Virus record (IMG/VR): IMGVR_UViG_3300021425_002620
DNA length: 64,000 nucleotides
From: a virus
Taxonomy: Duplodnaviria; Caudoviricetes
Strand: one strand, 5' to 3'
Under the pieces are notes generated by a model. The model made no database searches and had not been told where the DNA came from. It worked only from the letters and a program-made list of their open reading frames with translations. Made by a program: the position numbers and the translations under genes. This document shows, in pieces, positions 1-28,791 of the stretch (positions are counted from its first letter, which is position 1; every line of letters starts with the position of its first letter).

Positions 1-699
1 ATGCATAATTCGGCAACTATCAATCTAAACATTGTAAATGAAATGGTTAAGAAGGGAGTTAAGCGAGTATTTTATAGTTCAAGTGCTTGCATGTATCCGC
101 AACAATTACAAACAGGTGATGTTGCAGATCCTTCTCTCATCGAAAGTCAAGCATATCCTGCAGATCCAGACAGCGATTACGGTTGGGAAAAATTGTTTAG
201 TGAAAGATTGTATCTAGCATATGCACGTAACTACGGGCTACACGTAAGAATCGCTAGGCTTCATAATATATACGGTCCTGAAGGATCATGGAATAATGGT
301 AAAGAAAAATCTCCAGCAGCACTTTGTCGTAAAGTAGCAGAAAGCGAAAACGGAGAAATTGAAGTATGGGGACCAGGAACACAAAAAAGAACATTTTTGT
401 ATATTGACGAGTGCATAAAAGGCATTGATCGTATTATGAATGGTTCGTATGAGTACCCGTTAAATCTTGGTAGTCAAAGAATGATATCAATCAATGACCT
501 TGCATATATGATTAGCAGTATTGCCAGAAAAAATATTAAAATTAAAAATACAGACGGACCTCTTGGCGTAATGGGCAGAAGAAGCCATAACGGTTTAATT
601 AAAAAGAATATAGGTTGGGCACCTGACGAAGATCTAGAGTATGGATTGAAGAAAACATACGACTGGATATTGGAGCAAGTGCGGAATGCGGCTACCTAA
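1..699 (+). CDS. NAD-dependent nucleotide-sugar epimerase/dehydratase, GDP-mannose 3,5-epimerase-like (5' part lies outside the window)
   Basis: Extended SDR motifs YSSSACMYP, YGWEK (YxxxK), RLHNIYGP, N-terminal Rossmann glycine motif absent because ORF is open at the window edge. Confidence 0.9.
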   Translation: MHNSATINLNIVNEMVKKGVKRVFYSSSACMYPQQLQTGDVADPSLIESQAYPADPDSDYGWEKLFSERLYLAYARNYGLHVRIARLHNIYGPEGSWNNGKEKSPAALCRKVAESENGEIEVWGPGTQKRTFLYIDECIKGIDRIMNGSYEYPLNLGSQRMISINDLAYMISSIARKNIKIKNTDGPLGVMGRRSHNGLIKKNIGWAPDEDLEYGLKKTYDWILEQVRNAAT

Positions 700-1708
700 T
701 ACAGTATCTTTTACACCTTGGTATAATTCAGCAAGTGAAATAGAAGAAAAAGTTTTAAATGATAGAGTAGATATAATTAACTTTTTCTATTTCTACGAAG
801 GCGAACTTCCTAAAATTACACAAAAAGTAGTTGATACAATTAATAGAAAAAATATTACTTGTAATATAGTTCTTGCGTCTCCTATAGACTATCAAAAAAA
901 AGTTGTAAAACAACTTGGTATAAACAAAGAACTATGTAATTTTGAAGAGTGGTTAGACTTTTTTATTTTGTTTGCATATCATAATATGCATCATCATCCT
1001 AATTTTTATACCAATGCTAAAAAGTACCTAAACGATTATGACTATAAGTTTACCATACCATATTCTTGTTTTAATCATAGAGCAAAAGAACACAGAGTTA
1101 AATTAATAGATCAACTAGCAAAAGAAAAAATATTAGATAAAGGTCTTGTGTCGTTTTTAGGTGCAGGAAATCATAACGTAAAATTTGAACATTACAATGG
1201 CAGGGTGTTAAAACTAGGTGATAATTTTGATCAAGATCATCCTTATATTTTTAATAAAAAATACTTTGAAAGTTTTTTACATGTTGCTACAGAATCGTGG
1301 ACTGAAAACTTTTTTCTAACAGAAAAAACTACAATGAGATTATTATTTGGATTACCATTCTTAACTTTAGGCTGTAGACATTTTCATAAAAAATTAGAAG
1401 ACATGGGATTTGTTTTATATGACGAAATTTTTGATTACTCATTTGATAATGAACAATCTTTAGACAAACGTATAAACGGAATAGTTAAAAATATTCGTCA
1501 TGTTCTTAATAACGATGTTAATGATATGTATCAAAAAATTAAACCTGCTCTCGAATGGAATAGAACATTAGCATTAGAATATGTAAAGGGAAAAACAATT
1601 CCAAAATCAGTAAAAAGACAGATGATCTTGTCTTCTGCCAAAACCAATCGAACAGGATTAGATTTTGATCTTTATTCTATGTCATCTTACTTGACAGAAA
1701 CAACATAA
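686..1708 (+). CDS. Putative glycosyltransferase-like protein (GT-B/GT10-like C-terminal half)
   Basis: C-terminal FLHVATES..NFFLTEKT..L..G.PFL motif resembles the ENS...EK donor-binding region of GT10 fucosyltransferases; follows the epimerase. Confidence 0.45.
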   Translation: MRLPNTVSFTPWYNSASEIEEKVLNDRVDIINFFYFYEGELPKITQKVVDTINRKNITCNIVLASPIDYQKKVVKQLGINKELCNFEEWLDFFILFAYHNMHHHPNFYTNAKKYLNDYDYKFTIPYSCFNHRAKEHRVKLIDQLAKEKILDKGLVSFLGAGNHNVKFEHYNGRVLKLGDNFDQDHPYIFNKKYFESFLHVATESWTENFFLTEKTTMRLLFGLPFLTLGCRHFHKKLEDMGFVLYDEIFDYSFDNEQSLDKRINGIVKNIRHVLNNDVNDMYQKIKPALEWNRTLALEYVKGKTIPKSVKRQMILSSAKTNRTGLDFDLYSMSSYLTETT

Positions 1709-1719
1709 GGCTGTATAGT
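1691..1719 (+). promoter_or_regulatory. sigma70-type promoter, probably producing a leaderless mRNA for 1726..3687
   Basis: TTGACA (1691-1696), 17 bp, TATAGT (1714-1719), 6 nt, ATG at 1726. Confidence 0.75.
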
Positions 1720-1725
1720 AATAAG

Positions 1726-3687
1726 ATGTATGATATCTTTTTTATAGGATCAAAAACAGATAACGGCTGGCATGAACTAAGGCAGAGATTTCCTTTTGCT
1801 AAAATTTCTACTGACTTTGAATCAGCACAAAAAACTTCTTTAACAAAGTTTTTATGGATAGTTTGGAATGACGTTAAAATCCTTGATACATTTTCTTTTG
1901 ACTATCAAATAGATGAATGGAGTGAAGAATACACACACTTATTTAAAAATGGTGATGTTTATGATGGAATTTGTTTGCTACACAAGGATTTACACGTTAG
2001 TAAGAAAGAAGTAAAGCATAGATTTTTTGTAAACAAAAAAGAAGTTGATATTGTAGCAAGTATTCCTAGGCCTTATGATAAATTTAGTCCTTCGACCTAT
2101 GATGAATATTTAGAATGTGCAGCAAACAGTACAACAGATATGTTTTGGGCAATCTGGGACGATGTTGATCTTGACTATAATTTAGATTATTATGTTCCTG
2201 CATATGATACGTATCATAAAAAAATTACACATATATTTTTAAATGGCGAAACACAAGACGGTATTTGTCTTTTTAGCAAAACAGAAACAGTTACAAAAAA
2301 AGAATTTGATCATCGTTTTTTTGTAAACAAAAAAGAAGTTGATATTGTAGCAAGTACACCAAAACCCTACCCTGTATATCATATAGATACGTATGAAGAT
2401 TATCAAACAGCATTAGAAAGTTCGCCAACGCAAATGTTTTGGTGCATTTGGAAAAATGTAGAAGTAATCGATCCTACAATATACTCTTTATATTTTAGTT
2501 ACCATAATAGTTATGATAGAAATGAAAATCATGTATGGTCTAATCTGTGTAATGATACAGTAAGTTATCATGGTGGTATAATACTAGCATCAAAAAATAA
2601 ACCTATTTCTAAAAAAGAAATAGAACATAGATTTATTATCAACAGAAAGGAACATGAACAACCTATTAGTCGATATCGCTATCCTAGATATATTATTAGA
2701 AGCTATGACGATTATTTAGAAATAGCAGAAAAAGAAACTAGTCCTTTATTTTGGTGTGTTTGGAATAATGTAGAAATATTAGACGATAGTATATTTGATT
2801 TTTACTATAATCCTACAGATGGCAGATATGATGCTGATAGAGAAATGCATCATGTATACAAACACATATTTAGAAATGAAGAAACTTATCATAACGGAGT
2901 ATTTTTAGCAACAACTAAACATACCATTGGCAAACGAGAGTTTGACCATAAGTATGTTATTACACGTAAAGAGCATGACGAAGTCATTTCAAAATTACGT
3001 CCTTATGATATTGTGTTTATTAGTTATAATGAACCCGATGCTGATGATAATTTTAAAAAATTAAAAGAAAGATTTCCAAGGGCAAAACGTGTACACGGTG
3101 TAACAGGAATACATCAAGCTCACATCGAAGCAGCAAAACTTTGCGATACTGAAATGGTTTGGATTGTTGATGGCGATGCACATATTGTAGAAGATTTTGA
3201 TTTTAGCCATGAAGCAAACACTTATGAAATTGATACTGTACATGTTTGGCAGAGTCAAAACCCAATAAATAATCTTGTTTACGGTTATGGTGGAGTAAAA
3301 CTTTTGCCAAGAGATTTAACTTTAAACATGAACGTAGACACTGCTGATATGACTACTAGTATTAGCGATAAATTTAAGTCAATGCCTGACGTGTCAAACA
3401 TTACAGCATTTAATACTGATGAATTTAGCACTTGGAAAAGTGCATTTAGAGAATGTGTAAAACTAGCATCAAAAACTATTAAAGGACAAATAGATGATGA
3501 AACTGAAAAAAGATTGGAAATCTGGTGTACACAAGGAGACGAAGCTCGCTTTGGAAGGTATGCTATTAGCGGTGCTTGCGCTGGTCGTGACTTTGGGTAT
3601 AACAATAGTGATAAGCCAGATAATTTAAAACTTATAAATAATTTTGAGTGGTTATATGAAAAATTTCGAACAAATTCCGTGGACTGA
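1726..3687 (+). CDS. Glycosyltransferase (GT-A-like) with four upstream degenerate tandem copies of the same domain
   Basis: Five units each starting YD/YP; last unit has YDIVFISY...WIVDGDA (DxD); first four have W-x-D/N at the DxD position and shared K(K/R)E.DHRF...KE motif. Confidence 0.6.
   Translation: MYDIFFIGSKTDNGWHELRQRFPFAKISTDFESAQKTSLTKFLWIVWNDVKILDTFSFDYQIDEWSEEYTHLFKNGDVYDGICLLHKDLHVSKKEVKHRFFVNKKEVDIVASIPRPYDKFSPSTYDEYLECAANSTTDMFWAIWDDVDLDYNLDYYVPAYDTYHKKITHIFLNGETQDGICLFSKTETVTKKEFDHRFFVNKKEVDIVASTPKPYPVYHIDTYEDYQTALESSPTQMFWCIWKNVEVIDPTIYSLYFSYHNSYDRNENHVWSNLCNDTVSYHGGIILASKNKPISKKEIEHRFIINRKEHEQPISRYRYPRYIIRSYDDYLEIAEKETSPLFWCVWNNVEILDDSIFDFYYNPTDGRYDADREMHHVYKHIFRNEETYHNGVFLATTKHTIGKREFDHKYVITRKEHDEVISKLRPYDIVFISYNEPDADDNFKKLKERFPRAKRVHGVTGIHQAHIEAAKLCDTEMVWIVDGDAHIVEDFDFSHEANTYEIDTVHVWQSQNPINNLVYGYGGVKLLPRDLTLNMNVDTADMTTSISDKFKSMPDVSNITAFNTDEFSTWKSAFRECVKLASKTIKGQIDDETEKRLEIWCTQGDEARFGRYAISGACAGRDFGYNNSDKPDNLKLINNFEWLYEKFRTNSVD
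2023..2356 (+). repeat. 40-nt exact direct repeat inside the tandem-domain glycosyltransferase gene
   Basis: ttttttgtaaacaaaaaagaagttgatattgtagcaagta at 2023-2062 and 2317-2356 (encodes FFVNKKEVDIVAS twice). Confidence 0.9.
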
Positions 3688-4642
3688 TATAACCCATTTC
3701 GGCCAAAAAACTCTCCTAAAGAGCCATCTTTTCACAGTTTCGTGGATCACCACAAGATATTGTAATTATTCGTGCAGTTATTGCTGGCCTCACGCAAGAT
3801 CTAGTGTCCCTGACACTAAACCCACAGAATTATACTTAAAGACCATGGATAGTATCAAAGCGCAAGCCCGTGCAAATAACTTTACAGATTTTCATTTTAG
3901 TTTCAGTGGCGGAGAACCTACTGCTAATAAACAGTTTATACCGTTAGTTGAACACTATTGTAGTGACATAGAACCAGCGTATCAAAGCATACACATGACC
4001 ACAAATCTATCACCTGGCCATAAATGGTGGGATAAGTACTTACATATAACGGAAAACTTGCAACGCCGCAGTGTAACAGCAAGTTACCATGCAGAATTTG
4101 CAGACGAACAAAAGTTCGGAGACAAATGTTTACAACTCATGGAAGGAGGTGTTTTTGTTACAATTAATCAAGTTATGGTTCCAGAAATGTTTGAAGATCT
4201 TTATCAAAGGCTTGAACGATTTGCCGCCAGAGGCATTAATGTCACTCTCAAACCACAATCCGACCCTACCGCCTCCTACGTGGTACATGGATATACAGAA
4301 GAACAAATTGCAACAATGCGACGAGGATTCCCACAACACTGGCAAGGAGAAGGAGTTGCACAAGTTGCACTCTACGACAGTAAAGGAAACGAGTACGAAA
4401 TAGACCAAGCAGAACGATTTAATGCGTTCGGGTTTAATAAATTTAAAGGATGGTCTTGTAATGCAGGCTATCAAGGAATAATTATCAGAGATACTGAAGT
4501 TAGGCGAAGTCATAGTTGTCATGATGACATACTAGGAACAATCACAGACGGTTTTGAAATTTTTAAAAAACCAACCGAGTGTGTTACTCCTAGTTGTATG
4601 AGTAGTGCCGATAGTAAATTACCAAAGTGGAAAAACCTTTGA
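3656..4642 (+). CDS. Radical SAM protein with C-terminal SPASM/twitch-like Cys cluster
   Basis: CNYSCSYC, SGGEP, C-terminal WSCNAG...SHSC...CVTPSC; ATG at 3656 preferred over TTG at 3644. Confidence 0.9.
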   Translation: MKNFEQIPWTDITHFGQKTLLKSHLFTVSWITTRYCNYSCSYCWPHARSSVPDTKPTELYLKTMDSIKAQARANNFTDFHFSFSGGEPTANKQFIPLVEHYCSDIEPAYQSIHMTTNLSPGHKWWDKYLHITENLQRRSVTASYHAEFADEQKFGDKCLQLMEGGVFVTINQVMVPEMFEDLYQRLERFAARGINVTLKPQSDPTASYVVHGYTEEQIATMRRGFPQHWQGEGVAQVALYDSKGNEYEIDQAERFNAFGFNKFKGWSCNAGYQGIIIRDTEVRRSHSCHDDILGTITDGFEIFKKPTECVTPSCMSSADSKLPKWKNL

Positions 4643-5235
4643 AAGTTGATATAGAAGATGTATTATTTTGGATGGACGCTATTCGTAATAGTGACGATCG
4701 TTATCGTACACTTGAAAGTTTTTGGAAAGGACAAGTACATAGTAAAGTTTGGCTAATTGAACAGATGCAAGAATATAAAGTTCAAGGTAGTGTTGCTATC
4801 TATGGAGGTTGGAACGGTGTACTTGCAAGTTTGTTGTTTAATAGCGACCTATGTATACCAGAAATTGAAAGTATAGATATAGATCCTGTATGTAAAAAGA
4901 TTGCAGAAACTGTTAATATGCAACAACATATGCAAGGAAGATTTACTGCTACAACAGCAGATATGTGCGAGTACACTGCAGATACAGATATTGCTATAAA
5001 CACTAGTTGCGAACATTTAACACAAGAGCAATATGAAAAATGGTTGAGTAATATTCAACCTGGTACTAAGGTAGTATTACAAAGCAACAATTATTTTGAG
5101 CTAGACGAACATGTAAGATGTGCAAAAAATATGGAAGAATTTGTAAAACAATCAAAAGTATATGTTGCATATGTTGGAGAATTTAAAACACCAAACTATA
5201 CTAGATATATGATTATAGGTCATAAGTTTCGTTAG
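4639..5235 (+). CDS. Class I SAM-dependent methyltransferase-like protein
   Basis: VAIYGGWNG glycine loop, ESIDID acidic motif II, INTSCEH; TTG at 4639 overlaps the upstream TGA. Confidence 0.7.
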   Translation: MKVDIEDVLFWMDAIRNSDDRYRTLESFWKGQVHSKVWLIEQMQEYKVQGSVAIYGGWNGVLASLLFNSDLCIPEIESIDIDPVCKKIAETVNMQQHMQGRFTATTADMCEYTADTDIAINTSCEHLTQEQYEKWLSNIQPGTKVVLQSNNYFELDEHVRCAKNMEEFVKQSKVYVAYVGEFKTPNYTRYMIIGHKFR

Positions 5236-6271
5236 TAATTACAGTATGTATTTTATAATCTAATTCTTGATTAAATTCTAATAGATGATATGTTTTAGTA
5301 TTTGCATGATACCCTATTACTTTTAGTAAATGATTGTGTATAATAGGTCTTCCTAATATATATTCTTTTAAGTATAATTCTTTAACTACAGTTCCGTGTA
5401 CATTAATTTTTAAAATAGGACAATTAGTTGTTCCAACAGGTATGAATACAGCATGTGTATTATATCGTATACCTGATTTAAATTGGTACTTGTTATCAAA
5501 TTCAAGTCCTATATCAAAGTTAGTAGACTGTTTGGTTGTAGTATCAAATATTAATCCCCAATTACCATTGTATGGAGCTGCTATAATTTTGTCATGTATC
5601 AAAACACCGCAATTATATTTTTTAGCAAAATCTTTGCACTGAGTTTTGTACACTTTCATTTCTTTTGTTTCGGTATTAAACTCTATAACTTCATTTAGAC
5701 CTGCGGTTTCTCCAAATGGTAATGCGTACAATGTATTACCTACAACAATAATGTCACTATACTTTTGCGTTATAGAATTATTGATTCCTGCTATTGGGTA
5801 ACTGTTAATTTTTTTGCCGTCAAATTCTAATAATAAATTATAATTAGAATCGTTACTGTATGGCATACTCCAGTAACTACCGTTACAATAAACAGTACCT
5901 ATATGTAAGTTTGTCCCTTGTATAGGCATTTTAATAAATTCAACATCATTGTTAAGACATAATGCAAATTTGCTACCAAAGCTAAATGCTGTTTCATTAT
6001 TAGATGCTAGACTATAATATTGACTACTGTCTGTGTCTATGCTGTAATATTTAGGTTTGTAGTTTTTAATTTGTATAACAGAATTATGTGTAACTAACCA
6101 TATATCGTTTTTAACAACTTTGCATACATTTATTTTGCTTATTTTATCTAATGCTATATTTCTATTTTTATTTAAAATTTTAAATTTAGGCTTGTCTGCA
6201 AGTATTGAAACCAAGTCGTTCTTGTATTGACAGGCAATCGAATCTAAGTAATTTGGCTCTATATGCGGCAT
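5213..6271 (-). CDS. Putative beta-propeller repeat protein
   Basis: Four or more ~45-aa repeats ending in hydrophobic-x-P-(Y/F/V)-G/S (YWSMPYS, LYALPFG, IIAAPYN, AVFIPVG); ATG at 6271 chosen because of upstream TAAATA box. Confidence 0.5.
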   Translation of the reverse strand: MPHIEPNYLDSIACQYKNDLVSILADKPKFKILNKNRNIALDKISKINVCKVVKNDIWLVTHNSVIQIKNYKPKYYSIDTDSSQYYSLASNNETAFSFGSKFALCLNNDVEFIKMPIQGTNLHIGTVYCNGSYWSMPYSNDSNYNLLLEFDGKKINSYPIAGINNSITQKYSDIIVVGNTLYALPFGETAGLNEVIEFNTETKEMKVYKTQCKDFAKKYNCGVLIHDKIIAAPYNGNWGLIFDTTTKQSTNFDIGLEFDNKYQFKSGIRYNTHAVFIPVGTTNCPILKINVHGTVVKELYLKEYILGRPIIHNHLLKVIGYHANTKTYHLLEFNQELDYKIHTVITNETYDL

Positions 6272-6276
6272 AAGTA

Positions 6277-6283
6277 TATTTAA
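6277..6283 (-). promoter_or_regulatory. T4-type late promoter box, leaderless arrangement
   Basis: TTAAATA then 5 nt (tactt) then ATG at 6271. Confidence 0.6.
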
Positions 6284-6323
6284 CAACTGTTATTATACAA
6301 AATAGAAGATATGAAAACTTAAC

Positions 6324-7391
6324 ATGTTTACGTTTAATCAACTAGAAAACATACATTTAGAAATTACAAATCGGTGTCAAGCAAGCTGTCCTATGTGCAG
6401 CAGAAATGTTCACGGCGGTTTAGAAAACCCCTTAATTAAAAATCAAGACTGGACAGTAGCAGACTTTAAAAATATTTTAAATAATGAAGTATTACATCAA
6501 CTAAAAGGATTTTATTTTTGTGGAAACTTTGGTGATCCAATTATTAACAACGATCTAATAGAAATGTGTCAATACAGCACAGATATTAATCCTAATTTAT
6601 ATATTAGAATACATACTAACGGCGGCGCAAGAAATACCGACTGGTGGAAAAGATTAGCAAAAGCGTTACCGCCAGCGCATAATGTTATTTTTGCAATTGA
6701 CGGATTAGCAGACACACATAGTTTATATCGAGTTGGGACTAATTTTCATAAAGTTTTAGAAAATGCAAAGGCATTTATTAGTGCAGGCGGAACAGCTGAA
6801 TGGGCGTTTATTAAATTTAAGCACAATGAACATCAACTAGAAGAAGCAGAAGCATTGGCAAAAACACACGGCTTTGCTAGATTTACATATAAAGATAGTG
6901 CAAGATTTGTTGCTACTAAAGAGTTTCCGGTATATGATGCAAAAGGCAACATAACACGTTATTTAGAACCCCCTACTGGAAGTAAAATTAATCTGATTAC
7001 TCAAGATGTAATTGATAATTATAAAGATATAGTGGACGCTAGTGAAATAGATTGTTACGTAAAACAAACAAAAGAAATTTACATAGATGCATATAAAAAA
7101 ATTATGCCTTGTTGTTTTTTAGCAAGTATTCCTTACAACTATGCTGCTGATAATGACACTACTAAATCTATTAGAATTGAAATTGAACAACAATATTTTA
7201 AACTAATAAAAGATTTAGGAAATACAAGTGCATTAGAAAATAGTATAAAATCAGTAATAAATTCTGTTGCTTGGCAAACAGTATGGCAAAAATATTGGGG
7301 CACAGAAAAATTAATTACATGTGCAAGGACATGTGGAGTTAATAAACTTAGTAAGCCTAAAGATCAGTTTATTGAGCATACCGAACTATAA
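6324..7391 (+). CDS. Radical SAM/SPASM-domain protein
   Basis: CQASCPMC, GNFGDP, C-terminal CY...MPCCFL...CARTC. Confidence 0.9.
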   Translation: MFTFNQLENIHLEITNRCQASCPMCSRNVHGGLENPLIKNQDWTVADFKNILNNEVLHQLKGFYFCGNFGDPIINNDLIEMCQYSTDINPNLYIRIHTNGGARNTDWWKRLAKALPPAHNVIFAIDGLADTHSLYRVGTNFHKVLENAKAFISAGGTAEWAFIKFKHNEHQLEEAEALAKTHGFARFTYKDSARFVATKEFPVYDAKGNITRYLEPPTGSKINLITQDVIDNYKDIVDASEIDCYVKQTKEIYIDAYKKIMPCCFLASIPYNYAADNDTTKSIRIEIEQQYFKLIKDLGNTSALENSIKSVINSVAWQTVWQKYWGTEKLITCARTCGVNKLSKPKDQFIEHTEL

Positions 7392-18283: not shown

Positions 18284-18778
18284 TTACCTTTCATATGTAC
18301 TAAAATGGAATGTTAATCTAGTAGTATAACTTATATTACATGCTCCATGAATTTCGTTTGCATTAGGATATTGAAAAATATCTCCTTTTTTATAATTAGT
18401 TAAGACTTCGTCTTTGTATTGAAAAATGTGTCCCGGAACGTAGTCTTGCATAGCAATCCAATATCTTTTGCACTCTTTAAATTCATGAGTGTGCGGATCT
18501 GTGTGCATAGGCATAAAGTTGCCAGGATTCATTTTTATACCCCACCAAATATTATCTAAGTGACTGTCAAATGGTATTGTAATTTCAAAAGGGAACGTGT
18601 GCGGCTCGTAAATGTACCAATATGTGCTAGTTAAATCGTAACCTGCGGAAGTAGCAATTTTAAATTCTTCACTATCTGGATTTGGCCCGCCTCCTGGTCT
18701 GCTAGTCCCATCATTATTGGTCATAAACTCTATGTACTCGTCTTTAATCCAGTCTTTATAGTTGCCGACATAGATCAT
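18284..18778 (-). CDS. 2OG-Fe(II) oxygenase family protein (paralog of 17757..18281)
   Basis: PGNFMPMHTD ... VPGHIF ... IHGACNIS..TRLTF. Confidence 0.75.
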   Translation of the reverse strand: MIYVGNYKDWIKDEYIEFMTNNDGTSRPGGGPNPDSEEFKIATSAGYDLTSTYWYIYEPHTFPFEITIPFDSHLDNIWWGIKMNPGNFMPMHTDPHTHEFKECKRYWIAMQDYVPGHIFQYKDEVLTNYKKGDIFQYPNANEIHGACNISYTTRLTFHFSTYER

Positions 18779-22373: not shown

Positions 22374-23051
22374 TTGTACAATTACTATTACAATGATGTT
22401 CCTGGCATTGGACTTTGTAGAAATAATTTAATATACACAAGTCTTGCAAATAAAGAGTTGACAAAATTTATCCAGTGGTATTTTAACGACGGTGAATATC
22501 ATAAAGGACAAAATCAAGTTGTAGACCCTAAACTAATGCAAGAAAAGTTTGATAGAGAAGTTAAGTACCTATCATTAATGCATACTAATTATCCTGAATT
22601 AGTTCCTAACTTTTACGCAGATGTATCTGAAAGAAAAATTTATTTAGATATTGACGGTAAAGACTTTTGGAATCGTGCAGGATGTTTAACAGAAAATTAT
22701 GATAATGTGTTACCTGATTGGCAAGATCAAATGTTAGAAATAATAAAGGCACACAAAAGTTTAGGACTGCACAAGTATAGTATGCATCCGTCAAGTTATT
22801 TTGTTGTAGACGGAAAGTTAAAGAGTATGAATTACTTTTTTACATATCATGAATCAGAACCATGTGTAAGTATTGCAGATGTAGAAAGTCACATATACAG
22901 TACACGTCAAGATGAAATGCGTAAACATTTAGAAAGTTTAGGCATTGAATGGAATAAACCACAGCCTTGGGAAGTAATGGACAAATTGTGTTGGAATAGT
23001 TTTAGAACAAATTATCCATCAGACTTTATAGAGAAAGCACTTAATGTATAA
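22374..23051 (+). CDS. Protein-kinase-like fold protein (paralog of 17080..17760)
   Basis: FDREVKYL, LPDWQDQM, YSMHPSSY, SMNYFF align with the 17080 protein; TTG start after GGAGAG. Confidence 0.5.
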   Translation: MYNYYYNDVPGIGLCRNNLIYTSLANKELTKFIQWYFNDGEYHKGQNQVVDPKLMQEKFDREVKYLSLMHTNYPELVPNFYADVSERKIYLDIDGKDFWNRAGCLTENYDNVLPDWQDQMLEIIKAHKSLGLHKYSMHPSSYFVVDGKLKSMNYFFTYHESEPCVSIADVESHIYSTRQDEMRKHLESLGIEWNKPQPWEVMDKLCWNSFRTNYPSDFIEKALNV

Positions 23052-23601
23052 AATAATACCTTGGAATAAAGATTTAGATTTAACAAATTTTTACAAAGAA
23101 GCCGAAAAGCGAGGCTTTGAAAATAATGCCTCTCAGCATATGCTAGTAGATTGCTTTCGAAAAGAAACTAAATGGAATACATGGATATTGTACTACAACA
23201 ATGAAGCAGTTGGAAGTGTGGCAGCACATAGTTTTGATGATGTAATGGGTCCTAACACATATCGTGTTGCTGCTAGGACCTGTGTGTTTACAGATAAACT
23301 ACCTTTAGTTAGTTTAAGGACACGCAATCAAATTATTACACATCAACATGCTACATCACAGTTTTTAATACCTGCTTGCTTAGAATGGTTACCACAGGAT
23401 GCTAGAGCATTTATTACGTCTAATGAAAATGAAGCAGGAACACAAAGAATTGTACATCGTATATATGGACCTGCAATGGAAAAAAGCGGACAAATGAAAC
23501 GAGTTAAAGATGTATACTATAGAGGCACTAATCAAACAGTATGGGAAATCTTTCCTGATAAGTTTTTTGAAGAATTAAATAAACATCCTAGATGGAGGTA
23601 A
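23044..23601 (+). CDS. Hypothetical protein, possible GNAT-like fold
   Basis: WILYYNNEAVGSVAAH beta-hairpin pattern resembles GNAT strands; no clear acetyl-CoA loop. Confidence 0.3.
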   Translation: MYKIIPWNKDLDLTNFYKEAEKRGFENNASQHMLVDCFRKETKWNTWILYYNNEAVGSVAAHSFDDVMGPNTYRVAARTCVFTDKLPLVSLRTRNQIITHQHATSQFLIPACLEWLPQDARAFITSNENEAGTQRIVHRIYGPAMEKSGQMKRVKDVYYRGTNQTVWEIFPDKFFEELNKHPRWR

Positions 23602-23604: not shown

Positions 23605-24345
23605 GTGCAAGAGAGTGCAGAAGAATTTTTAAAACAGTTAAAGAACGATTTGCATAGATATATTGATGCATTCAAAGAGAAAACTAGAGATTTTAAAGTA
23701 GGTCATATAGAAGATATTGATAAGTTTTTTGACGAATATTTAGGAAAACTATTTGATAATAAAACCGACCAAAGAATTTTTGATTCTATCAAAACTTTAA
23801 GGTTTCTCGAGCCACATCATGTAGATAACTGTAAAGCAATACTTGATCGTATGAGTTTACTAGAACAACTACCAAAAAATGCTGTAGTAGCAGAAATAGG
23901 TGTTGATAGAGGTCGGTTTGCAGAACGCATATACGAAGTAACACAACCACGAAAGCTACATCTTATTGATATTTTTCAATTTGATTATCAATTAGAATCA
24001 ATAAACAATATACTAGGCAAAAAAGAAAACATAGAGATACATCAAGTAGACTCTGCAGAAGCAGGAAATTTGTTTGATGACGATTATTTTGACTGGATCT
24101 ATATAGATACTGATCATACATATGAAAGAACTAAAGCAGAACTAAATGCATTTGCAAATAAAATTAAACCAGGAGGTTATATATCAGGTCACGACTACTT
24201 TCAAGTTGGTATATCAAACGGGTTTTCATACGGTGTAATGAGTGCAGTACACGAGTTTGTAGTTATTAATGACTGGAAACTATATGCAGTTACACTAGAA
24301 CCTTTAGAAAATCAAAGTTTTGTTATACAAAAGCCAAATAACTAA
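23605..24345 (+). CDS. Class I SAM-dependent methyltransferase (Methyltransf_24-like)
   Basis: VAEIGVDRG, LIDIF, DWIYIDTDHTYE, IKPGGYISGHDY. Confidence 0.85.
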   Translation: MQESAEEFLKQLKNDLHRYIDAFKEKTRDFKVGHIEDIDKFFDEYLGKLFDNKTDQRIFDSIKTLRFLEPHHVDNCKAILDRMSLLEQLPKNAVVAEIGVDRGRFAERIYEVTQPRKLHLIDIFQFDYQLESINNILGKKENIEIHQVDSAEAGNLFDDDYFDWIYIDTDHTYERTKAELNAFANKIKPGGYISGHDYFQVGISNGFSYGVMSAVHEFVVINDWKLYAVTLEPLENQSFVIQKPNN

Positions 24346-25106
24346 ATCTTATAATACTCTAAAGTTTCAATATTATCCCATATCTGCTCGCCCATTGTAT
24401 CGCATGTTCTATTGAACTCGTCGACAAACTTAAACACATTATCAACAGGAAGTGTTTTTAATATGTCTAATCGTGCGTTCCACCATTTTGTTTCTAAAAG
24501 CATTTCTTTTACTTTATCGGGAAATCTATCTCTAATAATTTTATTTACTCCACCTACAATAGTATAAGGTGAAACATCTTTAGTAATTACAGCGTTAGCA
24601 GCAATAACAGCACCGTTGCCAATCGTAACACCTGGCATTACAATAATGTTGTCGCCTAGGTATACATCATTACCTATTATAACAGGGCGACCGTTCATTT
24701 CTTTTACATCTGTTTGACTTCTACTAATGTTTAGCATAGCAAGTTCTTTGTCTGTATAATTACTCTGGTTAGCCATTATAGTATCTGGATTAATACTGAC
24801 GCCTGAAAAGTTATGCATACCAGCAGCAATAGTACAGCGATATCCTATACCACTATGTCTGCCCATAAAAAAGTTATCTCGCATATAACCACCATCTCTA
24901 ATACTAGAATATGCTCCGATAAAGATTGTATTTGGTTCGGAAGTAAAATTAGGACAATCAACCTTACAGCCTTTTTCAAATAAAATATTATTTAAAAATG
25001 AAATATTCTCTGTACGTATTTTATGTTCTTCTGTTGTAGTTATGGTTTGATCTGCAGATAATTTCTTTTGTTTAAAGGATTCTAATTTATCTTCTATACC
25101 TTTCAT
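24342..25106 (-). CDS. Hexapeptide-repeat O-acetyltransferase, CatB/Vat-like
   Basis: VIIGNDVYLG...MPGVTIGNGAVIAANAVITKDV.PYTIVGG and LLETKWWN. Confidence 0.85.
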   Translation of the reverse strand: MKGIEDKLESFKQKKLSADQTITTTEEHKIRTENISFLNNILFEKGCKVDCPNFTSEPNTIFIGAYSSIRDGGYMRDNFFMGRHSGIGYRCTIAAGMHNFSGVSINPDTIMANQSNYTDKELAMLNISRSQTDVKEMNGRPVIIGNDVYLGDNIIVMPGVTIGNGAVIAANAVITKDVSPYTIVGGVNKIIRDRFPDKVKEMLLETKWWNARLDILKTLPVDNVFKFVDEFNRTCDTMGEQIWDNIETLEYYKI

Positions 25107-25144: not shown

Positions 25145-25705
25145 ATGGACTGGACAAAAATTAAAGCAGCTACTATTGATTTAGATGTTGATACAAACCG
25201 ATTAGAAAATGAATTAAAGAATATCCCTAACGATCGATGGGGTTCTTATATTCACCAATCGGGTCATGAATGGAAGAGTATGTTCATTAACAAAAATTCT
25301 ACAGAAGTTTTTAAAGATTTTAAAACTGCTAAAATGATACCCCATAGCGATTGGTATTGGGATGAAACTTTAGACACTCCGTATTTAAAAGAATTAGTAG
25401 AGTCGTTACCTATGAAAAATATTGGCATGATTAGGGCATTTATTTTAAATGGTCCTCTTGTAATGCATACAGATAGTAACGAAACTACTCCAGTTGAATT
25501 AAATTATAATTTAGGTTTAACCATTGCAACTAAAATGGAAGGTCCTATGCAAATGGCCGGCTGTGGACCTATTGAAGGTTATAATGTATTGTTTAATGAT
25601 TCTATAGAGCACGGATTTCCAAACGGTGTTGGCGAGCAAATTAGTTTAAGAATATTTGGAGATTTTGACTACGATAAATTTAAGGTAACACGCATATATG
25701 AATAG
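25145..25705 (+). CDS. 2OG-Fe(II)/cupin oxygenase-like protein
   Basis: LVMHTD ... LFNDSIEHG...ISLRIFG. Confidence 0.6.
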   Translation: MDWTKIKAATIDLDVDTNRLENELKNIPNDRWGSYIHQSGHEWKSMFINKNSTEVFKDFKTAKMIPHSDWYWDETLDTPYLKELVESLPMKNIGMIRAFILNGPLVMHTDSNETTPVELNYNLGLTIATKMEGPMQMAGCGPIEGYNVLFNDSIEHGFPNGVGEQISLRIFGDFDYDKFKVTRIYE

Positions 25706-26153
25706 TATAATTAAAAAATCATCTATTTTAGACTTTACAAAAGAAAGTCTGTTTGTTGTAGAACAAGAGTTTACAAACGAATTTATGGGAATGACCCTTC
25801 AACGTGCAGTAACTAAAAATTTAAAACTTCTAGATATAGAAGAATTATCTCCAATTAGAGAGTACATTTTAAGTTGTATTCCTGGATACGAGTTTATGGG
25901 CAGCTGGGCATCTAAGATTGATCCGGGAGTTGGTGCAGGAGAACACATTCATCCTGATGCTGATGTTTCGGGTACAATATGTCTAAGCATTAATGAAGGA
26001 ATCATATATCACCATGTAGAAAACATTGTAAGGAAGGAAATTTTATATCCTAACGATTTAATATTCTGGCCGTCAAATATTGTACATTCTGTACCAATTA
26101 ACGAAAATGAAAATCCTTGGTATAGTATTAATTTTGATTTAAGGAAAGTTTAA
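25698..26153 (+). CDS. 2OG-Fe(II) oxygenase family protein
   Basis: GEHIHP.ADVSGTI ... LIFWPS.IVHSVP...SINFD. Confidence 0.75.
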   Translation: MNSIIKKSSILDFTKESLFVVEQEFTNEFMGMTLQRAVTKNLKLLDIEELSPIREYILSCIPGYEFMGSWASKIDPGVGAGEHIHPDADVSGTICLSINEGIIYHHVENIVRKEILYPNDLIFWPSNIVHSVPINENENPWYSINFDLRKV

Positions 26154-26599
26154 TGTATCTAGAATATCTTGACTTACCTAAATTATCAGCAAATTTAATA
26201 GAAAACGTATATGAGACAGTCAAAACTAGTAAAAAATATACTAGTCAAGGAAACACAGATGCCGAAAATTATGAACACTTTACAAGTATAGATGCTAGTA
26301 ATGAATTAAAAAAATTTACTCAAAGCATTTTTGATTTTGAACATCTCACCCATATATTTTTTTTAACAGACGATTTACCTATGCATATTGATAATCTTGA
26401 TGTAAGAAGTAAAGCCTATAATTATGTTATCGAGTCCGGCGGCGGAAACACTAACATTTATAATCAAAAAGCAGAACTAATAGAATCTTATGATATTGAT
26501 TTACATCGTTGGCATATATTAGATGTTTCTCAAAACCATAGTGTTTCAATACCTAACCCTCCAAGGATATTAGTTACAGTAACGCCAATAAAAGGTTAA
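26153..26599 (+). CDS. 2OG-Fe(II)/cupin oxygenase-like protein
   Basis: LPMHID...AYNY ... WHILDV.QNHSV...PRIL. Confidence 0.6.
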   Translation: MYLEYLDLPKLSANLIENVYETVKTSKKYTSQGNTDAENYEHFTSIDASNELKKFTQSIFDFEHLTHIFFLTDDLPMHIDNLDVRSKAYNYVIESGGGNTNIYNQKAELIESYDIDLHRWHILDVSQNHSVSIPNPPRILVTVTPIKG

Positions 26600-26602
26600 A
26601 TT

Positions 26603-28129
26603 ATGCATAATAACATAAAAAATATAACAATCGTTGGAGGTGGTACAGCAGGTTGGTTAGCAGCAGCCTGGTTTTCTAAATTTAATAAAAACTTAAAAAT
26701 AACACTGATTGAATCTCCTACTATTCCGCCTATTGGAGTAGGTGAAGCAGTTACTCCGCATGTTGCTATATTTTTTGAAAAACTTGGAATAAATGAAAAA
26801 GACTGGATGAAACATACAGGCGCAGTCTATAAGTATGCTAATAAATTTGTAAACTGGAATACTAACAAAAAAAGCGAATATTCTAGTTTTAATTATCCAT
26901 TAAATAGCTCTGTTTTGTTACGTGATATAGATCACGGATTAAATACTGATGATTTTATTACAAATGATATTAATACTGCTGATACATTTATGCACTTGTT
27001 AGCAACTGGAGAAATAGATAAATTTGACAAGTATTTTCACAGCCAATTCCCTTACATGGAAAATAATGTTGCTCCGTTTGATAACAATGATTATTTACTC
27101 AATAAAAATTATAGCTGGAGTCAGCATATAAACGCAGAACTAGCAGCTGAATATATAAGAGATAATGTTGCTATTCCTAATGGTGTAGAGCATATAAAAG
27201 CTAATGTTGCTAAAATTGTAAAAACTAATCAAGGCATTGACAAACTAATTTTAGATAATGGATCTATTAACCATGCAGATTTTTATATTGATGCTTCTGG
27301 CTTTAAAAGAATTTTAGCATCAGAATTAGAATGGAATTTTAAAGAATACAAAAACCAACCAATTAGATCTGCTTGGGTTTCGCAAACAGATTACAATGAT
27401 ATTGAATCTGAATTAGTTAACTATACACAAAGCATTGCTGAACCATTTGGATGGAGATTTAAAATAGGATTATATCACCGAATGGGTAATGGTTATTCTT
27501 ACAGTCCAGACCATTGTAGTGATGACATAGCTAAAGAATATTTTTTAAATCAATTATCAAATGTAAAAACTACTCCAAGAAAACTATCTTGGACTCCAGG
27601 AAGATTTGAAAATCCACTACAAGGTAATGTTGCAACTATAGGATTAAGTATTGGATTTATAGAAGCATTAGAAGCTACATCGCTTTTAATTATTACAGAA
27701 AGTATTAGAGAATTAAGTGAAGTCTTAAACAACAAAATGACTGTTGAAGAATTTAATAATCATACCAATAGAAAATTTGATATTATTGCTGATTTTATTT
27801 TGGTGCATTATACTTTAAGTGACAGAACCGATACTGAGTTTTGGAAAGATATGCATGAGCTTGGTAAAAAAGAAAATCATGCCGACTTAGTGTATGAATA
27901 TTTTAAAAAGTTAAAGTTTGGCCAAGGTAATGTGTTTCCTGATTTTATGTGGGGGCAAGTTGCACATAGTTGGGGACAAAATTTAGACAAATGGATTTTA
28001 GATTCTAAATATAAAGATTTAATCGATTTAACTAAACTACACTATACTAATAGTAAATGCAAACATGAGATTGTTAGTAGGTCGCGTTTAACAAATTACA
28101 AATGGCTTACTCGATATATCTATAACTAG
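26603..28129 (+). CDS. Tryptophan-halogenase-family flavoprotein
   Basis: IVGGGTAGW, IGVGEA, conserved Lys in GAVYKYANKFVNW, YIDASGF, FIEALEATS; WxWxIP is replaced by WRFKIG. Confidence 0.85.
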   Translation: MHNNIKNITIVGGGTAGWLAAAWFSKFNKNLKITLIESPTIPPIGVGEAVTPHVAIFFEKLGINEKDWMKHTGAVYKYANKFVNWNTNKKSEYSSFNYPLNSSVLLRDIDHGLNTDDFITNDINTADTFMHLLATGEIDKFDKYFHSQFPYMENNVAPFDNNDYLLNKNYSWSQHINAELAAEYIRDNVAIPNGVEHIKANVAKIVKTNQGIDKLILDNGSINHADFYIDASGFKRILASELEWNFKEYKNQPIRSAWVSQTDYNDIESELVNYTQSIAEPFGWRFKIGLYHRMGNGYSYSPDHCSDDIAKEYFLNQLSNVKTTPRKLSWTPGRFENPLQGNVATIGLSIGFIEALEATSLLIITESIRELSEVLNNKMTVEEFNNHTNRKFDIIADFILVHYTLSDRTDTEFWKDMHELGKKENHADLVYEYFKKLKFGQGNVFPDFMWGQVAHSWGQNLDKWILDSKYKDLIDLTKLHYTNSKCKHEIVSRSRLTNYKWLTRYIYN

Positions 28130-28791
28130 ATTGTCTTCCAAGTATTGCCAGTTGCTTGTTCTCGTCTTGCATGGAAAGTCATTGTCTGCATATTAAAGAT
28201 ATCACCTGTTGAAAAACCATTTATAATGCATTCTGCTAAATGAGATGATGCATTTACTGGGTTAAACATTACGTGATGTTTATCTGCATTAACTGTAGTT
28301 ATATCAAACTTGCTTGAGTTATAACCTATAAATACAGGCGGCGGAAACTCTGTCATACCGTACCAGTTAGCAACAGTGCCAACACCTTTGCTTTTAAAGT
28401 CATCTATCATTTCTTGTGGAACTGGACCGCTTCCTGTAACCATGTATCTTACACAACTCATATCTAAGTCGCGCCATTCGTTATGTTCGGATAATATCTC
28501 CCAATGCCTAGGAATAAGTGCTATATAAGTTGGTTGAAACTCTTTGAACTTTGCTATATAATCTATAGCTTCGAACTTAGCACTTATAAGATTTGCTTTT
28601 GCTAGATAAGCAGGAAACGCAGTTACAGTATAATGTGCTATTGTATTTCCTGGAAATACATCTAGAACTCTGTCGTTGCTTGTAAGCCCTATTTCTTTAA
28701 TAGACAATCTTGCTAGTTCTTCTATCTCGTCCCAGCTGTGTGCAACCTTCTTAGGTGCCTTAGTGGTACCTGATGTAAGTAATGTTAGCAT
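28126..28791 (-). CDS. Minimal AMP-binding (ANL superfamily) adenylation protein
   Basis: LLTSGTTKAPK (A3), WYGMTE (A5), STGDIF (A7); lacks the usual N-terminal subdomain and the C-terminal lid. Confidence 0.7.
   Translation of the reverse strand: MLTLLTSGTTKAPKKVAHSWDEIEELARLSIKEIGLTSNDRVLDVFPGNTIAHYTVTAFPAYLAKANLISAKFEAIDYIAKFKEFQPTYIALIPRHWEILSEHNEWRDLDMSCVRYMVTGSGPVPQEMIDDFKSKGVGTVANWYGMTEFPPPVFIGYNSSKFDITTVNADKHHVMFNPVNASSHLAECIINGFSTGDIFNMQTMTFHARREQATGNTWKTI

Follow-up and report, generated by a model that had tools for sequence, protein, structure and literature searches.

Marine T4-like cyanophages and pelagiphages carry hypervariable islands in which LPS-type genes and 2OG-Fe(II) oxygenases abound. 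Virus-encoded glycosylation is known from chlorovirus capsid glycans, mimivirus fibril glycans and mycobacteriophage virions, and RiPP maturation clusters (e.g., those of proteusins) combine several radical SAM (rSAM) enzymes with an Fe/2OG hydroxylase. The island described here, from an uncultured marine jumbo phage, overlaps with each of these systems. Like the cyanophage and pelagiphage islands, it is a variable locus in a marine genome of myovirus type and encodes sugar enzymes and numerous small oxygenases of the 2OG/AspH-like kind; to our knowledge, those islands have not been reported with 10–15 rSAM genes, nor has a conserved syntenic core like the present one been described. Virus-encoded glycosylation likewise relies on a cytoplasmic sugar-nucleotide and transferase set without an exporter, there for virion proteins. 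However, those systems use recognizable glycosyltransferases and sugar-nucleotide enzymes, whereas the phage island has one certain sugar-nucleotide enzyme and most of its genes are radical or oxidative. Proteusin-type clusters share the rSAM mix including a class-B type, the hydroxylases and the methyltransferases, but their defining feature was looked for and not found: neither a precursor peptide nor an RRE, protease or exporter is present in the island.

Single proteins (numbered as in Table 1) also have informative relatives. The rSAM enzymes o08 and o12, 28% identical to each other, exceed the cut-off of NCBIfam NF033640 (N_Twi_rSAM; 170 bits) and share its Cys-rich N-terminal twitch followed by the rSAM core. 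This family has no assigned reaction, and here it occurs in a phage whose island has eight more rSAM enzymes, all of different types. For o32, the best match with a solved structure is the viral protein VirX1, a cyanophage flavin-dependent halogenase (PDB 6qgm; 1.3e-55, residues 5–416), which likewise has no assigned natural substrate. Unlike VirX1, o32 is set inside a large enzyme island and has a degenerate WxWxIP motif (WRFKIG); GxGxxG is present. Both o23 and o24 resemble Tes/GDGT-MAS and TrsS in carrying the PF23545 zinc ribbon (~1e-13) ahead of the rSAM core, but the NCBIfam matches are sub-threshold (70–74 bits, far under the equivalog cut-offs of 450–490) and the proteins have ~350 aa compared with 441–486 profile positions in the TrsS/Tes models.

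The window is the whole 64,000-nt stretch of viral DNA that was analysed (IMG/VR record IMGVR_UViG_3300021425_002620). Its positions 1–28791 belong to a genuine biosynthetic/tailoring island, with 33 consecutive ORFs in the window ORF list that are tightly packed (99.2% coding, largest intergenic gap 67 nt) in 10 strand blocks. The initial annotation had counted about 33 consecutive ORFs and 10 rSAM enzymes, and exactly ten ORFs (o04, o07, o08, o09, o10, o11, o12, o15, o23, and o24) lie above the Pfam cut-off, all with an intact CxxxCxxC. The island further encodes a GDP-mannose 3,5-epimerase, two acyltransferases (one hexapeptide, one GNAT), a methyltransferase, a VirX1-like halogenase, AspH-like/2OG oxygenases and two kinase-fold proteins, together with a PP-loop ATPase that resembles QueC and an adenylating enzyme that is truncated. 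Pfam and PDB matches to o01, o28, o32, and o33 bear out the sugar epimerase, O-acetyltransferase, halogenase homolog and adenylation fragment of the initial annotation, and the two proposed kinase folds agree with the o18/o25 family profile, which matches protein kinases, TTK among them, at 1.9e-7.

Table 1. Features of the tailoring island and of its fibre-side boundary, with positions in the window.
Feature	Assignment	Position	Strand	Basis
o01	GDP-mannose 3,5-epimerase; 5' end cut by window	1..699	+	Pfam Epimerase 9.7e-27
o02	Glycosyltransferase-like by motif only	686..1708	+	No Pfam, PHROG or PDB match
o03	N-terminal repeats and C-terminal domain (residues 424-653)	1726..3687	+	
o04	Radical SAM, shared module	3644..4642	+	Pfam 1.4e-11
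o05	Methyltransferase-like (weak), shared module	4627..5235	+	No Pfam match
o06	No function called	5213..6286	-	No relatives found among Pfam, PHROG and related contigs
o07	Radical SAM, shared module	6324..7391	+	Pfam 3.9e-08
o08	Radical SAM, N-terminal twitch domain, shared module	7403..8794	+	NCBIfam NF033640, 403 bits
o09	Radical SAM, paralogue of o04, o10, o11	8791..9771	+	Pfam 2.8e-13
o10	Radical SAM	9745..10806	-	Pfam 1.1e-14
o11	Radical SAM	10803..11759	-	Pfam 1.4e-12
o12	Radical SAM, N-terminal twitch domain	11701..12972	-	NF033640, 332 bits
o13	PP-loop ATPase, QueC-like	12956..13633	-	Pfam QueC 0.0026 (below threshold); PHROG QueC-like 7.2e-08
o14	AspH-like oxygenase	13689..14351	+	Pfam Asp_Arg_Hydrox 2.8e-4; HTD...H motif
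o15	Radical SAM, cobalamin-binding (class B) type	14348..15892	+	Pfam 2.5e-15
o16	Possible cupin	15889..16488	+	Sub-threshold FdtA match (0.013) and HPD...H motif only
o17	Small HxD...H cupin-like, family with o19 and o20	16488..17075	+	hhalign 98% to o19, o20
o18	Kinase-fold, catalytic residues non-canonical	17065..17760	+	Profile against protein kinases
o19	Small cupin-like	17757..18281	-	o17/o19/o20 family
o20	Small cupin-like	18284..18778	-	o17/o19/o20 family
o21	HLD...H motif	18775..19404	-	Motif only; n=7 relatives
o22	AspH-like 2OG/Fe(II) oxygenase	19404..20213	-	Predicted structure, pLDDT 89
o23	Zinc-ribbon radical SAM, Tes/TrsS-like N-terminus	20203..21255	-	Pfam Zn_ribbon_HMPTM 1.4e-13 and Radical_SAM
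o24	Radical SAM, tandem paralogue of o23	21221..22306	-	54% identity to o23
o25	Kinase-fold, o18 paralogue	22374..23051	+	hhalign 99.6%
o26	GNAT-fold acyltransferase	23044..23601	+	Model pLDDT 93; Foldseek probability 1.0; VIA Z 13.5
o27	Class I methyltransferase	23605..24345	+	Pfam Methyltransf_24 3.5e-14
o28	Hexapeptide-repeat acyltransferase	24342..25106	-	Pfam Hexapep 1.5e-09
o29	AspH-like (weak)	25145..25705	+	Pfam Asp_Arg_Hydrox 0.038, most of length; HTD...H motif
o30	2OG-Fe(II) oxygenase	25698..26153	+	Pfam 2OG-FeII_Oxy_5 (30.1 bits, cut-off 27); PHROG 81 at 5.3e-11
o31	HID...H motif	26153..26599	+	Only a motif; hhalign similarity to o29 is weak (26%)
o32	Flavin-dependent halogenase, VirX1-like	26603..28129	+	Pfam Trp_halogenase 1.6e-90
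o33	Truncated adenylate-forming enzyme	28126..28791	-	Pfam AMP-binding 1.2e-16
Hairpin	Terminator-like, between fibre gene and o33	28816..28837	-	
o34	Fibre protein next to the island, outside its enzyme set	28853..30016	-	Pfam Mtd_N 2.6e-10

The description of the locus as enzymes throughout also holds. Pfam scans of the 33 ORFs revealed no NRPS/PKS, and prediction together with Pfam scans found no transporter, exporter or transmembrane segment in any of the 33 proteins. Neither a scaffold nor a precursor gene lies within 1–28791, and at 99.2% coding density a precursor ORF would have no space. Every one of the 33 proteins is predicted to be soluble, in keeping with a product that is made, or attached, in the cytoplasm. 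A near-identical contig (98.8%) carries the island at least 7.6 kb further left, where it holds an 11th rSAM enzyme, and hence position 1 is not the island boundary. In total, the island exceeds 29 kb and consists of soluble tailoring enzymes only, with 10 to 11 rSAM enzymes. It adjoins a replication gene block, and the same DNA was found again in at least ten metagenomes of marine or wetland origin.

The island is conserved throughout the phage lineage, yet hypervariable locally. The gene order of its core (7.4–23.6 kb; o26-o25/o24-o23-o22-(o21)-o20-o19/o18-o17/o15-o14/o13-o12-o11/o09-o08, slashes separating blocks) is kept in ~45 uncultured viral (IMG/VR) contigs at 40–93% amino-acid identity and also on one 285-kb contig, and related phages have 8–15 rSAM genes apiece. 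Linkage in related phages is thus strongly conserved, rather than scattered and pseudogenized. On the far side of the fibre gene, at a distance of two kb, lies a gene for a DUF2201 protein; a phage in which this gene is 99% identical carries here a different set drawn from the same families of enzymes. Among 24 anchored loci, nine have the core, nine an alternative arrangement and six neither.

At the left end, the full-length copy of o01 in another locus (L204; 328 aa) matches PDB 2c59 with an E of 2.4e-86, and the 425-aa protein upstream of it has a 105-aa block in common with o02 (E 1e-6). The two glycosyltransferase-like calls of the initial annotation (o02, o03) could not be confirmed: both are based on motifs only (YNE and DGD for the GT-A-like o03, whose atlas neighbours are <0.9), and PDB searches gave no match for either. 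The gene o03 contains a DNA repeat with a spacing of 294 nt, and its C-terminal domain (o03C) occurs as a stand-alone ~230-aa protein in predatory bacteria of the Bdellovibrio type, the Bdellovibrionota. There, o03C, o04, o05, o07, and o08 co-occur as a small module common to dozens of genomes. HMMs matched o03C at 21 bacterial loci (best 1.7e-66), o04 in 49, o05 in 24 and o07 in 50; o04 homologues are 45–54% identical across Bdellovibrionota loci, o08 homologues ~45%, and N-twitch rSAM homologues are found overwhelmingly in this group. The uncharacterized Bdellovibrionota islands resemble the phage locus in the module (33–53% identity) and in their arrays of 3–10 rSAM paralogues. In contrast to the phage loci, they often have GT2 glycosyltransferases (18 of 62 bacterial loci and no phage locus with an ad hoc GT2 model), and they lack the phage-only core (o16–o22, o25, and o26 absent).

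In three of five annotated bacterial contexts, the module lies in loci rich in glycosyltransferases or sugar enzymes: one has five GT2 genes, a GNAT and Glyco_transf_7C, another a carbamoyltransferase, an NAD epimerase and Nucleotid_trans, and the third three GT2 genes and PMT_2. A further context has no sugar enzyme among its annotations. One Bdellovibrionales chromosome has the module by itself, adjoining the ribosomal-protein/SecY/Adk operon, which suggests that a virion glycan would be only one of several possible targets.

The phage-only core contains no enzyme with a substrate-informative relative. Among the core proteins without a named family, o22 is the most conserved (927 protein clusters, all unnamed); it has invariant H179, D181, and H235, AspH-named neighbours in AlphaFold DB and a model that compares with 7v4m at VIA Z 11.6 and with AspH at 11.2. 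About ten 2OG/cupin proteins had been proposed; o22 (model) and o30 (Pfam, PHROG) have tool support and o14 scores just under the Pfam cut-off (21.2 versus 22.6 bits), whereas o17, o19, and o20 share the invariant H, D, and H of HxD...H and o16, o21, o29, and o31 show motifs or sub-threshold matches only. The call of o13 as a QueC-like ATPase is a weaker one, with a sub-threshold Pfam match and the PHROG match, but its SGGxDS loop and C...CxxC motif are invariant; its profile found ThiI and asparagine synthetase at ~0.005. The class-B enzyme o15 has sub-threshold NCBIfam matches to PhpK, HpnJ, HpnR, and lipid B12-rSAM families. In o18, the HRD and DFG aspartates are not conserved in an alignment read by eye, and none of the 2358 protein clusters of the o25 family is named. 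One of the two suggested methyltransferases, o27, was recovered; o05 was not, its profile matching solely thermospermine synthase at 0.083. In the right-hand cassette, o33 covers AMP-binding profile positions 169–330 of 384 (motifs A3–A7 only, read by eye), and copies in relatives are 58–69% identical. As had been noted, the island ends at a fibre gene, o34, a homologue of which carries PTL_trimer.

We tentatively favor a product based on sugar and built in the cytoplasm. The pathway might start from a sugar or nucleotide-sugar of primary metabolism, which might then be rebuilt there by radical C-H chemistry. Four parts make up the island. The nucleotide-sugar supply end has the epimerase, which would yield GDP-L-galactose or GDP-L-gulose, and two putative transferase-like proteins, and the Bdellovibrionota-shared module is expanded by the rSAM paralogues o09–o12. 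The phage-only core adds the class-B rSAM and two Tes-like rSAMs, the GNAT, the QueC-like PP-loop ATPase, AspH-like 2OG oxygenases, two kinase-fold proteins of atypical kind and small cupin-like proteins, and the variable right-hand cassette a methyltransferase, the hexapeptide acyltransferase, oxygenases, the VirX1-like halogenase and the truncated adenylating enzyme. Hydroxylation, acylation and methylation, possibly also phosphorylation, amidation and halogenation, may follow the radical step before the product is either released or placed on a macromolecule of the virion or of the infected-cell surface. Several observations run against a sugar: tryptophan-type halogenases, AspH-like hydroxylases and SPASM/twitch rSAM enzymes are just as characteristic of peptide tailoring, the two transferase-like calls are unconfirmed, the GT2 model detected glycosyltransferases in only a minority of the bacterial loci and in no phage locus, the module can stand alone, and the island of one relative ends without epimerase or transferase, which marks the sugar-supply end as accessory. 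The initial annotation had named virion surface proteins, or a glycan on them, as the substrate. Its carbohydrate part is consistent with o01 and the sugar-rich module contexts, but the virion part is not supported: no finding connects the enzymes with virion proteins, a hairpin splits fibre gene from island, and the bacterial module can be solitary. Neither are the late-type promoters, since TATAAATA was seen 3 times versus 11.9 expected and sigma-70-like sites 86 times versus 91.

A free small molecule derived from a primary metabolite (of nucleoside-antibiotic, aminoglycoside or cofactor-like type) and acting on host or competitors during infection is a rather unlikely alternative. Such pathways consist almost exclusively of tailoring enzymes and need no scaffold synthase, and aminoglycoside and nucleoside pathways repeatedly use GNATs, enzymes with a kinase fold and rSAM enzymes of the twitch and class-B types. 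The QueC-like ATPase would fit as well, the closest structure to o22, tied with AspH, is the nucleoside-antibiotic beta-hydroxylase 7v4m, and a minimal module alone in a core-genome setting is expected of a self-contained metabolite pathway. However, exporter and self-resistance transporter are absent, Pfam scans found no aminotransferase or cyclase typical of such pathways, and rapid gene-set swapping between near-identical phages is more typical of surface-variation loci. We consider it unlikely that the island tailors, in a RiPP-like manner, a phage protein encoded outside it, such as the adjacent fibre or a different structural protein. On this reading the modifiers would be the rSAM-SPASM/twitch enzymes, the halogenase, the AspH-like beta-hydroxylases, the GNAT and the kinase-fold proteins, families as in proteusin- or ranthipeptide-type maturation; the AspH-family fold of o22, the solubility of all island proteins and a fast-evolving fibre gene that always adjoins the island in related loci agree with this. 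The many NCBIfam matches to peptide maturases, however, are far below cut-offs and limited to the cluster-binding N-terminus, Pfam scans of the island detected neither an RRE domain nor a leader peptidase or exporter, and a precursor gene is absent and has no space. Furthermore, the hairpin lies between fibre gene and island, fibre and core diverge separately (43% identity for the fibre versus 76–90% for the core), and the bacterial module is rarely beside a fibre-like gene (4 of ~78 loci).

Hypermodification of phage DNA (or RNA), e.g., by a 7-deazapurine or sugar-type base that shields from host nucleases, is very improbable. The QueC-like ATPase, weak QueE, MoaA and viperin-like N-termini among the rSAM enzymes, the adjoining replication block and a QueD-like PTPS gene next to the island in one relative point in this direction, but the QueE-like matches are generic and a thymidylate-synthase-type hydroxymethylase was sought and not found. 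In four related records, whose 22–44% completeness means that absence is not proof, TGT/DpdA was not found and PTPS occurs in only one. At least 10 rSAM enzymes and ten oxygenases also exceed any known DNA-modification pathway.

The left part of the window is occupied by an island of 33 consecutive ORFs (o01-o33) arranged in ten blocks of alternating strand. Every island ORF of at least 148 aa is enzyme-like or carries enzyme-like invariant residues, and no credible transmembrane segment is predicted in any of the 33 proteins. As proposed in the initial annotation, NRPS/PKS, transporter and precursor genes are absent from the island. No RiPP precursor peptide gene was found in or beside it (99.2% coding, widest gap 67 nt), and Pfam and PHROG scans of the island detected no RRE domain, leader peptidase or exporter as further RiPP features. 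Likewise, the 33 ORFs include no membrane protein and no Pfam family typical of an O-antigen or capsule locus (initiating lipid-carrier transferase, flippase/polymerase or ABC exporter). On the right, the island ends at a fibre gene (o34) with an Mtd_N domain, and a terminator-like hairpin and T-run immediately follow the stop codon of this gene, before o33. On the left, a contig that is 98.8% identical over the first part of the window reaches 7.6 kb further and encodes an 11th radical SAM (rSAM) enzyme and a 425-aa distant relative of o02, besides several unknowns and one glycine-rich protein. Hence, the start of the island lies outside the window. The glycine-rich protein (395 aa) was considered as a fibre relative and rejected, as it has no relation to the fibre. 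The coordinates of the features discussed here are collected in the table.

Coordinates of features in the window and in the loci compared
Feature	Sequence	Coordinates	Strand
Island (o01-o33)	window	1-28791	
Segment 98.8% identical to the contig extending left	window	1-5610	
o03, repeat-containing ORF	window	1726-3687	
o18, kinase-fold protein	window	17065-17760	
o25, kinase-fold protein	window	22374-23051	
o33, adenylate-forming enzyme piece	window	28126-28791	
Terminator-like hairpin and T-run	window	28816-28837	-
o34, fibre gene	window	28853-30016	-
MoxR-type AAA ATPase/DUF2201 VWA-metallopeptidase pair	window	31560-34071	
Cytidylyltransferase-like gene and PHROG 455 neighbour	window	56991-59034	
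Alternative island of sister phage (IMG sample 3300040808)	L205	1-13942	
Gene for fibre-like protein with Peptidase_S74 domain, Bdellovibrio sp. HCB2-146	L201	17278-21377	
QueD-like PTPS gene of larger related viral record	G004 contig	19717-20238	

The ten rSAM enzymes counted in the initial annotation all match Pfam Radical_SAM (PF04055; 34-57 bits, gathering cut-off 29.5), and each contains one CxxxCxxC cluster motif. Two of them, o08 (403 bits) and o12 (332 bits), have an N-terminal twitch domain and belong to NCBIfam NF033640 (N_Twi_rSAM), whose whole-protein cut-off is 170 bits; both cover model positions 2-397 of 398. A four-member paralogue set comprises o04, o09, o10 and o11, while o15 is a cobalamin-type enzyme and o23 and o24 form a tandem pair with a PF23545 zinc ribbon and 54% mutual identity. 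The remaining enzyme, o07, stands apart from all these groups.

About ten cupin or 2OG oxygenase proteins had been proposed, and the candidates proved uneven. A Pfam match makes o30 a solid 2OG-Fe(II) oxygenase. Equally solid is o22, an AspH-like 2OG oxygenase by its invariant HxD...H motif and a DSBH fold predicted with high confidence, and the cupin-like o17, o19 and o20 form one family with an invariant triad. Iron-binding residues are invariant in two oxygenase families. While o14 is borderline, o16, o21, o29 and o31 show motif or sub-threshold matches only, and profile-profile comparison of the ten cupin candidates linked only o17, o19 and o20, the remaining pairs scoring at most 26% probability. 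Twenty unknown ORFs have almost no match in PHROGs, and among 46 family members of island unknowns Pfam returned only PF05118, in three members.

On its profile match, o01 is the sole certain nucleotide-sugar enzyme of the island, a GDP-mannose 3,5-epimerase (2.4e-86 to PDB 2c59 over residues 6-325, versus 8e-21 for the next family). The two glycosyltransferase-like proteins, o02 and o03, could not be verified as such (GT-A/GT2, GT10) and are candidates at most: Pfam and PDB gave no match, their atlas neighbours with glycosyltransferase families score only 0.82-0.87, and the motifs were read by eye. The N-terminal repeats of o03 are an 80-nt DNA repeat at 294-nt spacing, by eye about four protein units of about 98 aa, and precede a C-terminal domain (o03C) that in Bdellovibrionota is a free protein of about 230 aa. 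Further assignments are a probable flavin-dependent halogenase (o32; PF04820 at 1.6e-90, closest solved relative cyanophage VirX1), a hexapeptide acyltransferase (o28) and a GNAT acyltransferase (o26, fold predicted with high confidence). In o32, GxGxxG is present as GGGTAG, WxWxIP is degenerate (WRFKIG) and the catalytic Lys is apparently conserved, by eye. Of the two methyltransferases proposed earlier, o27 holds, and the second, o05, could not be verified and lacks a useful PDB profile match; PDB profile searches from sequence gave nothing useful for o22, o26 and o03C either. The ORF next to the fibre, o33, encodes 221 aa of an adenylate-forming enzyme; this conserved piece contains motifs A3-A7 only. 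Relatives of this piece (215-223 aa, 58-69% identity) adjoin the fibre gene in both window-type and alternative island types.

The family profile of o18 and o25 matches protein kinases (TTK, 1.9e-7). Its invariant residues, read by eye, appear to lack the HRD and DFG Asp and include Lys K141 of o18. By eye, K141 sits in the stretch where the catalytic HRD Asp is expected. The family, whose members may be pseudokinases or carry out a different chemistry, is highly abundant in metagenomic data (2358 clusters).

The window comes from an uncultured jumbo phage, since it encodes a jumbo-type polymerase, relatives lie on contigs of 285 and 370 kb and 158-kb fragments are rated 44% complete by CheckV. 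The polymerase, a family-B enzyme in the right half (30-64 kb), shares 46-50% identity with those of jumbo phages Phosso, Atu_ph07 and Vibrio phage 2.275.O. This half has every gene on the minus strand and also encodes an exonuclease, a cytidylyltransferase, an ATP-dependent protease and a MoxR-type ATPase whose partner is a DUF2201 VWA-metallopeptidase. A DNA search found no similarity between the window and cultured phages, and a homologue search found no o23 relative encoded by any cultured phage. Nearly unchanged copies of the island DNA occur in 10 or more metagenomes from seawater, marine or wetland sources, and no RNA run was listed.

A search with o23 recovered 40 viral loci, and mapping all window proteins onto these and further viral loci revealed that about 45 contigs have a syntenic core in common (40-93% identity), with the order o26-o25 / o24-o23-o22-(o21)-o20-o19 / o18-o17 / o15-o14 / o13-o12-o11-(o10) / o09-o08. 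The genes of these relatives are linked and intact, the opposite of the scattered and pseudogenised genes that would have spoken against the initial annotation. Both island edges (o01-o07 and o27-o33) are variable. Four larger related records contain 8, 15, 10 and 15 rSAM genes, mostly clustered, in one record in two clusters. The position of the locus beside the fibre gene is kept and its content turns over. In a sister phage whose DUF2201 protein is 99% identical, the same site holds a different island, with four PF05118 hydroxylases, a different 405-aa halogenase, other rSAMs and the same truncated adenylating enzyme. Among 24 DUF2201-anchored loci with enough sequence, nine have the core, nine the alternative arrangement and six neither. 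For DUF2201 by itself, 479 viral contig stretches contain a relative, so that the gene serves well as an anchor for these phages. The o22 and o25 core families comprise 927 and 2358 protein clusters in aquatic metagenomes, none of them named.

Scanning genomes with a profile of the N-twitch rSAM yielded 78 loci. The great majority belong to Bdellovibrionota, among them Mb-scale chromosomes and a RefSeq Bdellovibrio. Homologues of o04 (45-54% identity), o05 (about 33%), o07 (about 35%) and o08 (about 45%) co-occur in dozens of bacterial loci, together with a stand-alone o03C homologue of about 230 aa and often 3-10 further rSAM paralogues. Phage loci lack GT2-type genes (a crude GT2 model detects them in 18 of 62 bacterial loci but in none from phages), whereas the Bdellovibrionota islands lack the phage-only core (o16-o22, o25, o26), which occurs in bacterial loci only on one short bacterial-binned contig, probably a misbinned phage. 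The five bacterial contexts annotated range from five GT2 genes with a GNAT, a Glyco_transf_7C and a Peptidase_S74 fibre, through a marine gammaproteobacterial locus with a carbamoyltransferase, an NAD epimerase, a Nucleotid_trans and a GFO_IDH_MocA-rSAM fusion, to a set of ten rSAM genes with GT2 genes and PMT_2 on its flanks, a locus without recognisable sugar enzyme and a four-gene module alone beside a ribosomal-protein/SecY/Adk operon. Judged from gene content, the carbohydrate association of the bacterial module is real but partial. This last, minimal module, on a Bdellovibrionales chromosome (L135), consists of two rSAM genes, an o03C-like gene and an N-twitch rSAM. It has the ribosomal-protein/SecY/Adk operon on one side and metabolic genes unrelated to it on the other, with a Hen1/Pnkp RNA-repair pair nearby. 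The rSAM/GT2 island of Bdellovibrio sp. HCB2-146 is adjoined by the gene for a fibre-like protein of 1959 aa that carries a Peptidase_S74 chaperone domain. Fibre adjacency as a general rule in bacteria was rejected, as it holds for only 4 of about 78 loci.

We tentatively favor a carbohydrate-based product, which we regard as possible but short of an even chance, because the linked genes are all enzymatic and all soluble, the rSAM CxxxCxxC motifs are intact, two oxygenase families keep their iron residues and one nucleotide-sugar enzyme is certain. Among the reactions known for twitch and class-B rSAM enzymes are the oxidation, epimerisation, deoxygenation and C-methylation of sugars. The pathway would start from a primary sugar or nucleotide-sugar and rework it in the cytoplasm by radical chemistry; hydroxylation, acylation and methylation of the intermediate would follow, possibly with phosphorylation, amidation, halogenation or adenylation-dependent coupling. 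As the island lacks a flippase and an exporter, its product would be joined to a target within the cell, for example virion proteins, be passed to host machinery or remain soluble. Alternatively, a free nucleoside- or aminoglycoside-like metabolite could be made. The stand-alone bacterial module and the predicted 7v4m-like fold of o22 are in line with this rather unlikely reading, but the missing exporter and the serotype-like gene turnover argue against it. Tailoring of a phage structural protein is a further alternative, and the fibre gene adjoins the island; however, the lack of a precursor gene, the hairpin after the fibre gene and the evolution of the fibre independently of the core make this unlikely.

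Hypermodification of nucleic acid is very improbable, since TGT/DpdA and hydroxymethylase are both absent in four partial relatives. Of the 7-deazaguanine DNA-modification system (FolE-QueD-QueE-QueC-DpdA), DpdA/TGT (PF01702) was found neither in these records (22-44% complete) nor in the window ORFs scanned. The PP-loop ATPase o13 has QueC-like features (QueC 17.7 bits versus a cut-off of 22), QueE-type matches of the island rSAMs are generic, and PTPS (QueD-like) occurs in one of the four records, which are partial. There it lies a few kb from the rSAM island; searching the other three records gave no such gene. Returning to the carbohydrate reading, a bolder and quite doubtful version is that jumbo phages and predatory Bdellovibrionota have in common an rSAM pathway building a hypermodified sugar decoration, the phage version being a serotype-like virion or fibre coat, a phage 'O-antigen'. 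The phage pathway would then have been expanded by oxygenases, kinase-fold proteins, halogenase and acyltransferases, and whole gene sets would be swapped between near-identical phages; both the phages and the bacteria must contact and breach Gram-negative prey.

The initial annotation took the target to be a phage-made macromolecule, most plausibly virion surface proteins or a glycan on them. A cytoplasmic, phage-directed pathway still fits and a glycan is compatible with it, but the late-promoter argument was dropped, because the T4-type late promoter TATAAATA is under-represented (3 observed versus 11.9 expected) and sigma-70-like sites occur at chance. Full-text literature searches turned up no account of an island of this kind. 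Its enzyme superfamilies are known, as are variable islands rich in 2OG oxygenases in marine myoviruses. What is unusual is how many rSAMs there are, that they stand among oxygen-dependent oxygenases, and that one module is common to phage and predatory bacteria. Scattered auxiliary enzymes are known phage cargo, and a syntenic block of 10-15 rSAMs and about ten oxygenases, carried by widespread marine jumbo phages, far exceeds prior descriptions. The Bdellovibrionota module offers a route to the chemistry in a culturable organism. A surface decoration would give phage-host recognition and phage diversity a further, new level, and a metabolite would represent a new class of virus-made natural product.

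The island also differs from the rest of the window in composition and layout. Its G+C content is about 0.30-0.36 (window 1-30000) versus about 0.34-0.40 in 30000-64000, and transcription outside it is one-directional while the island changes strand ten times. Outside the island, the cytidylyltransferase-like gene and its PHROG 455 neighbour could represent further nucleotide-activated sugar or polyol metabolism.
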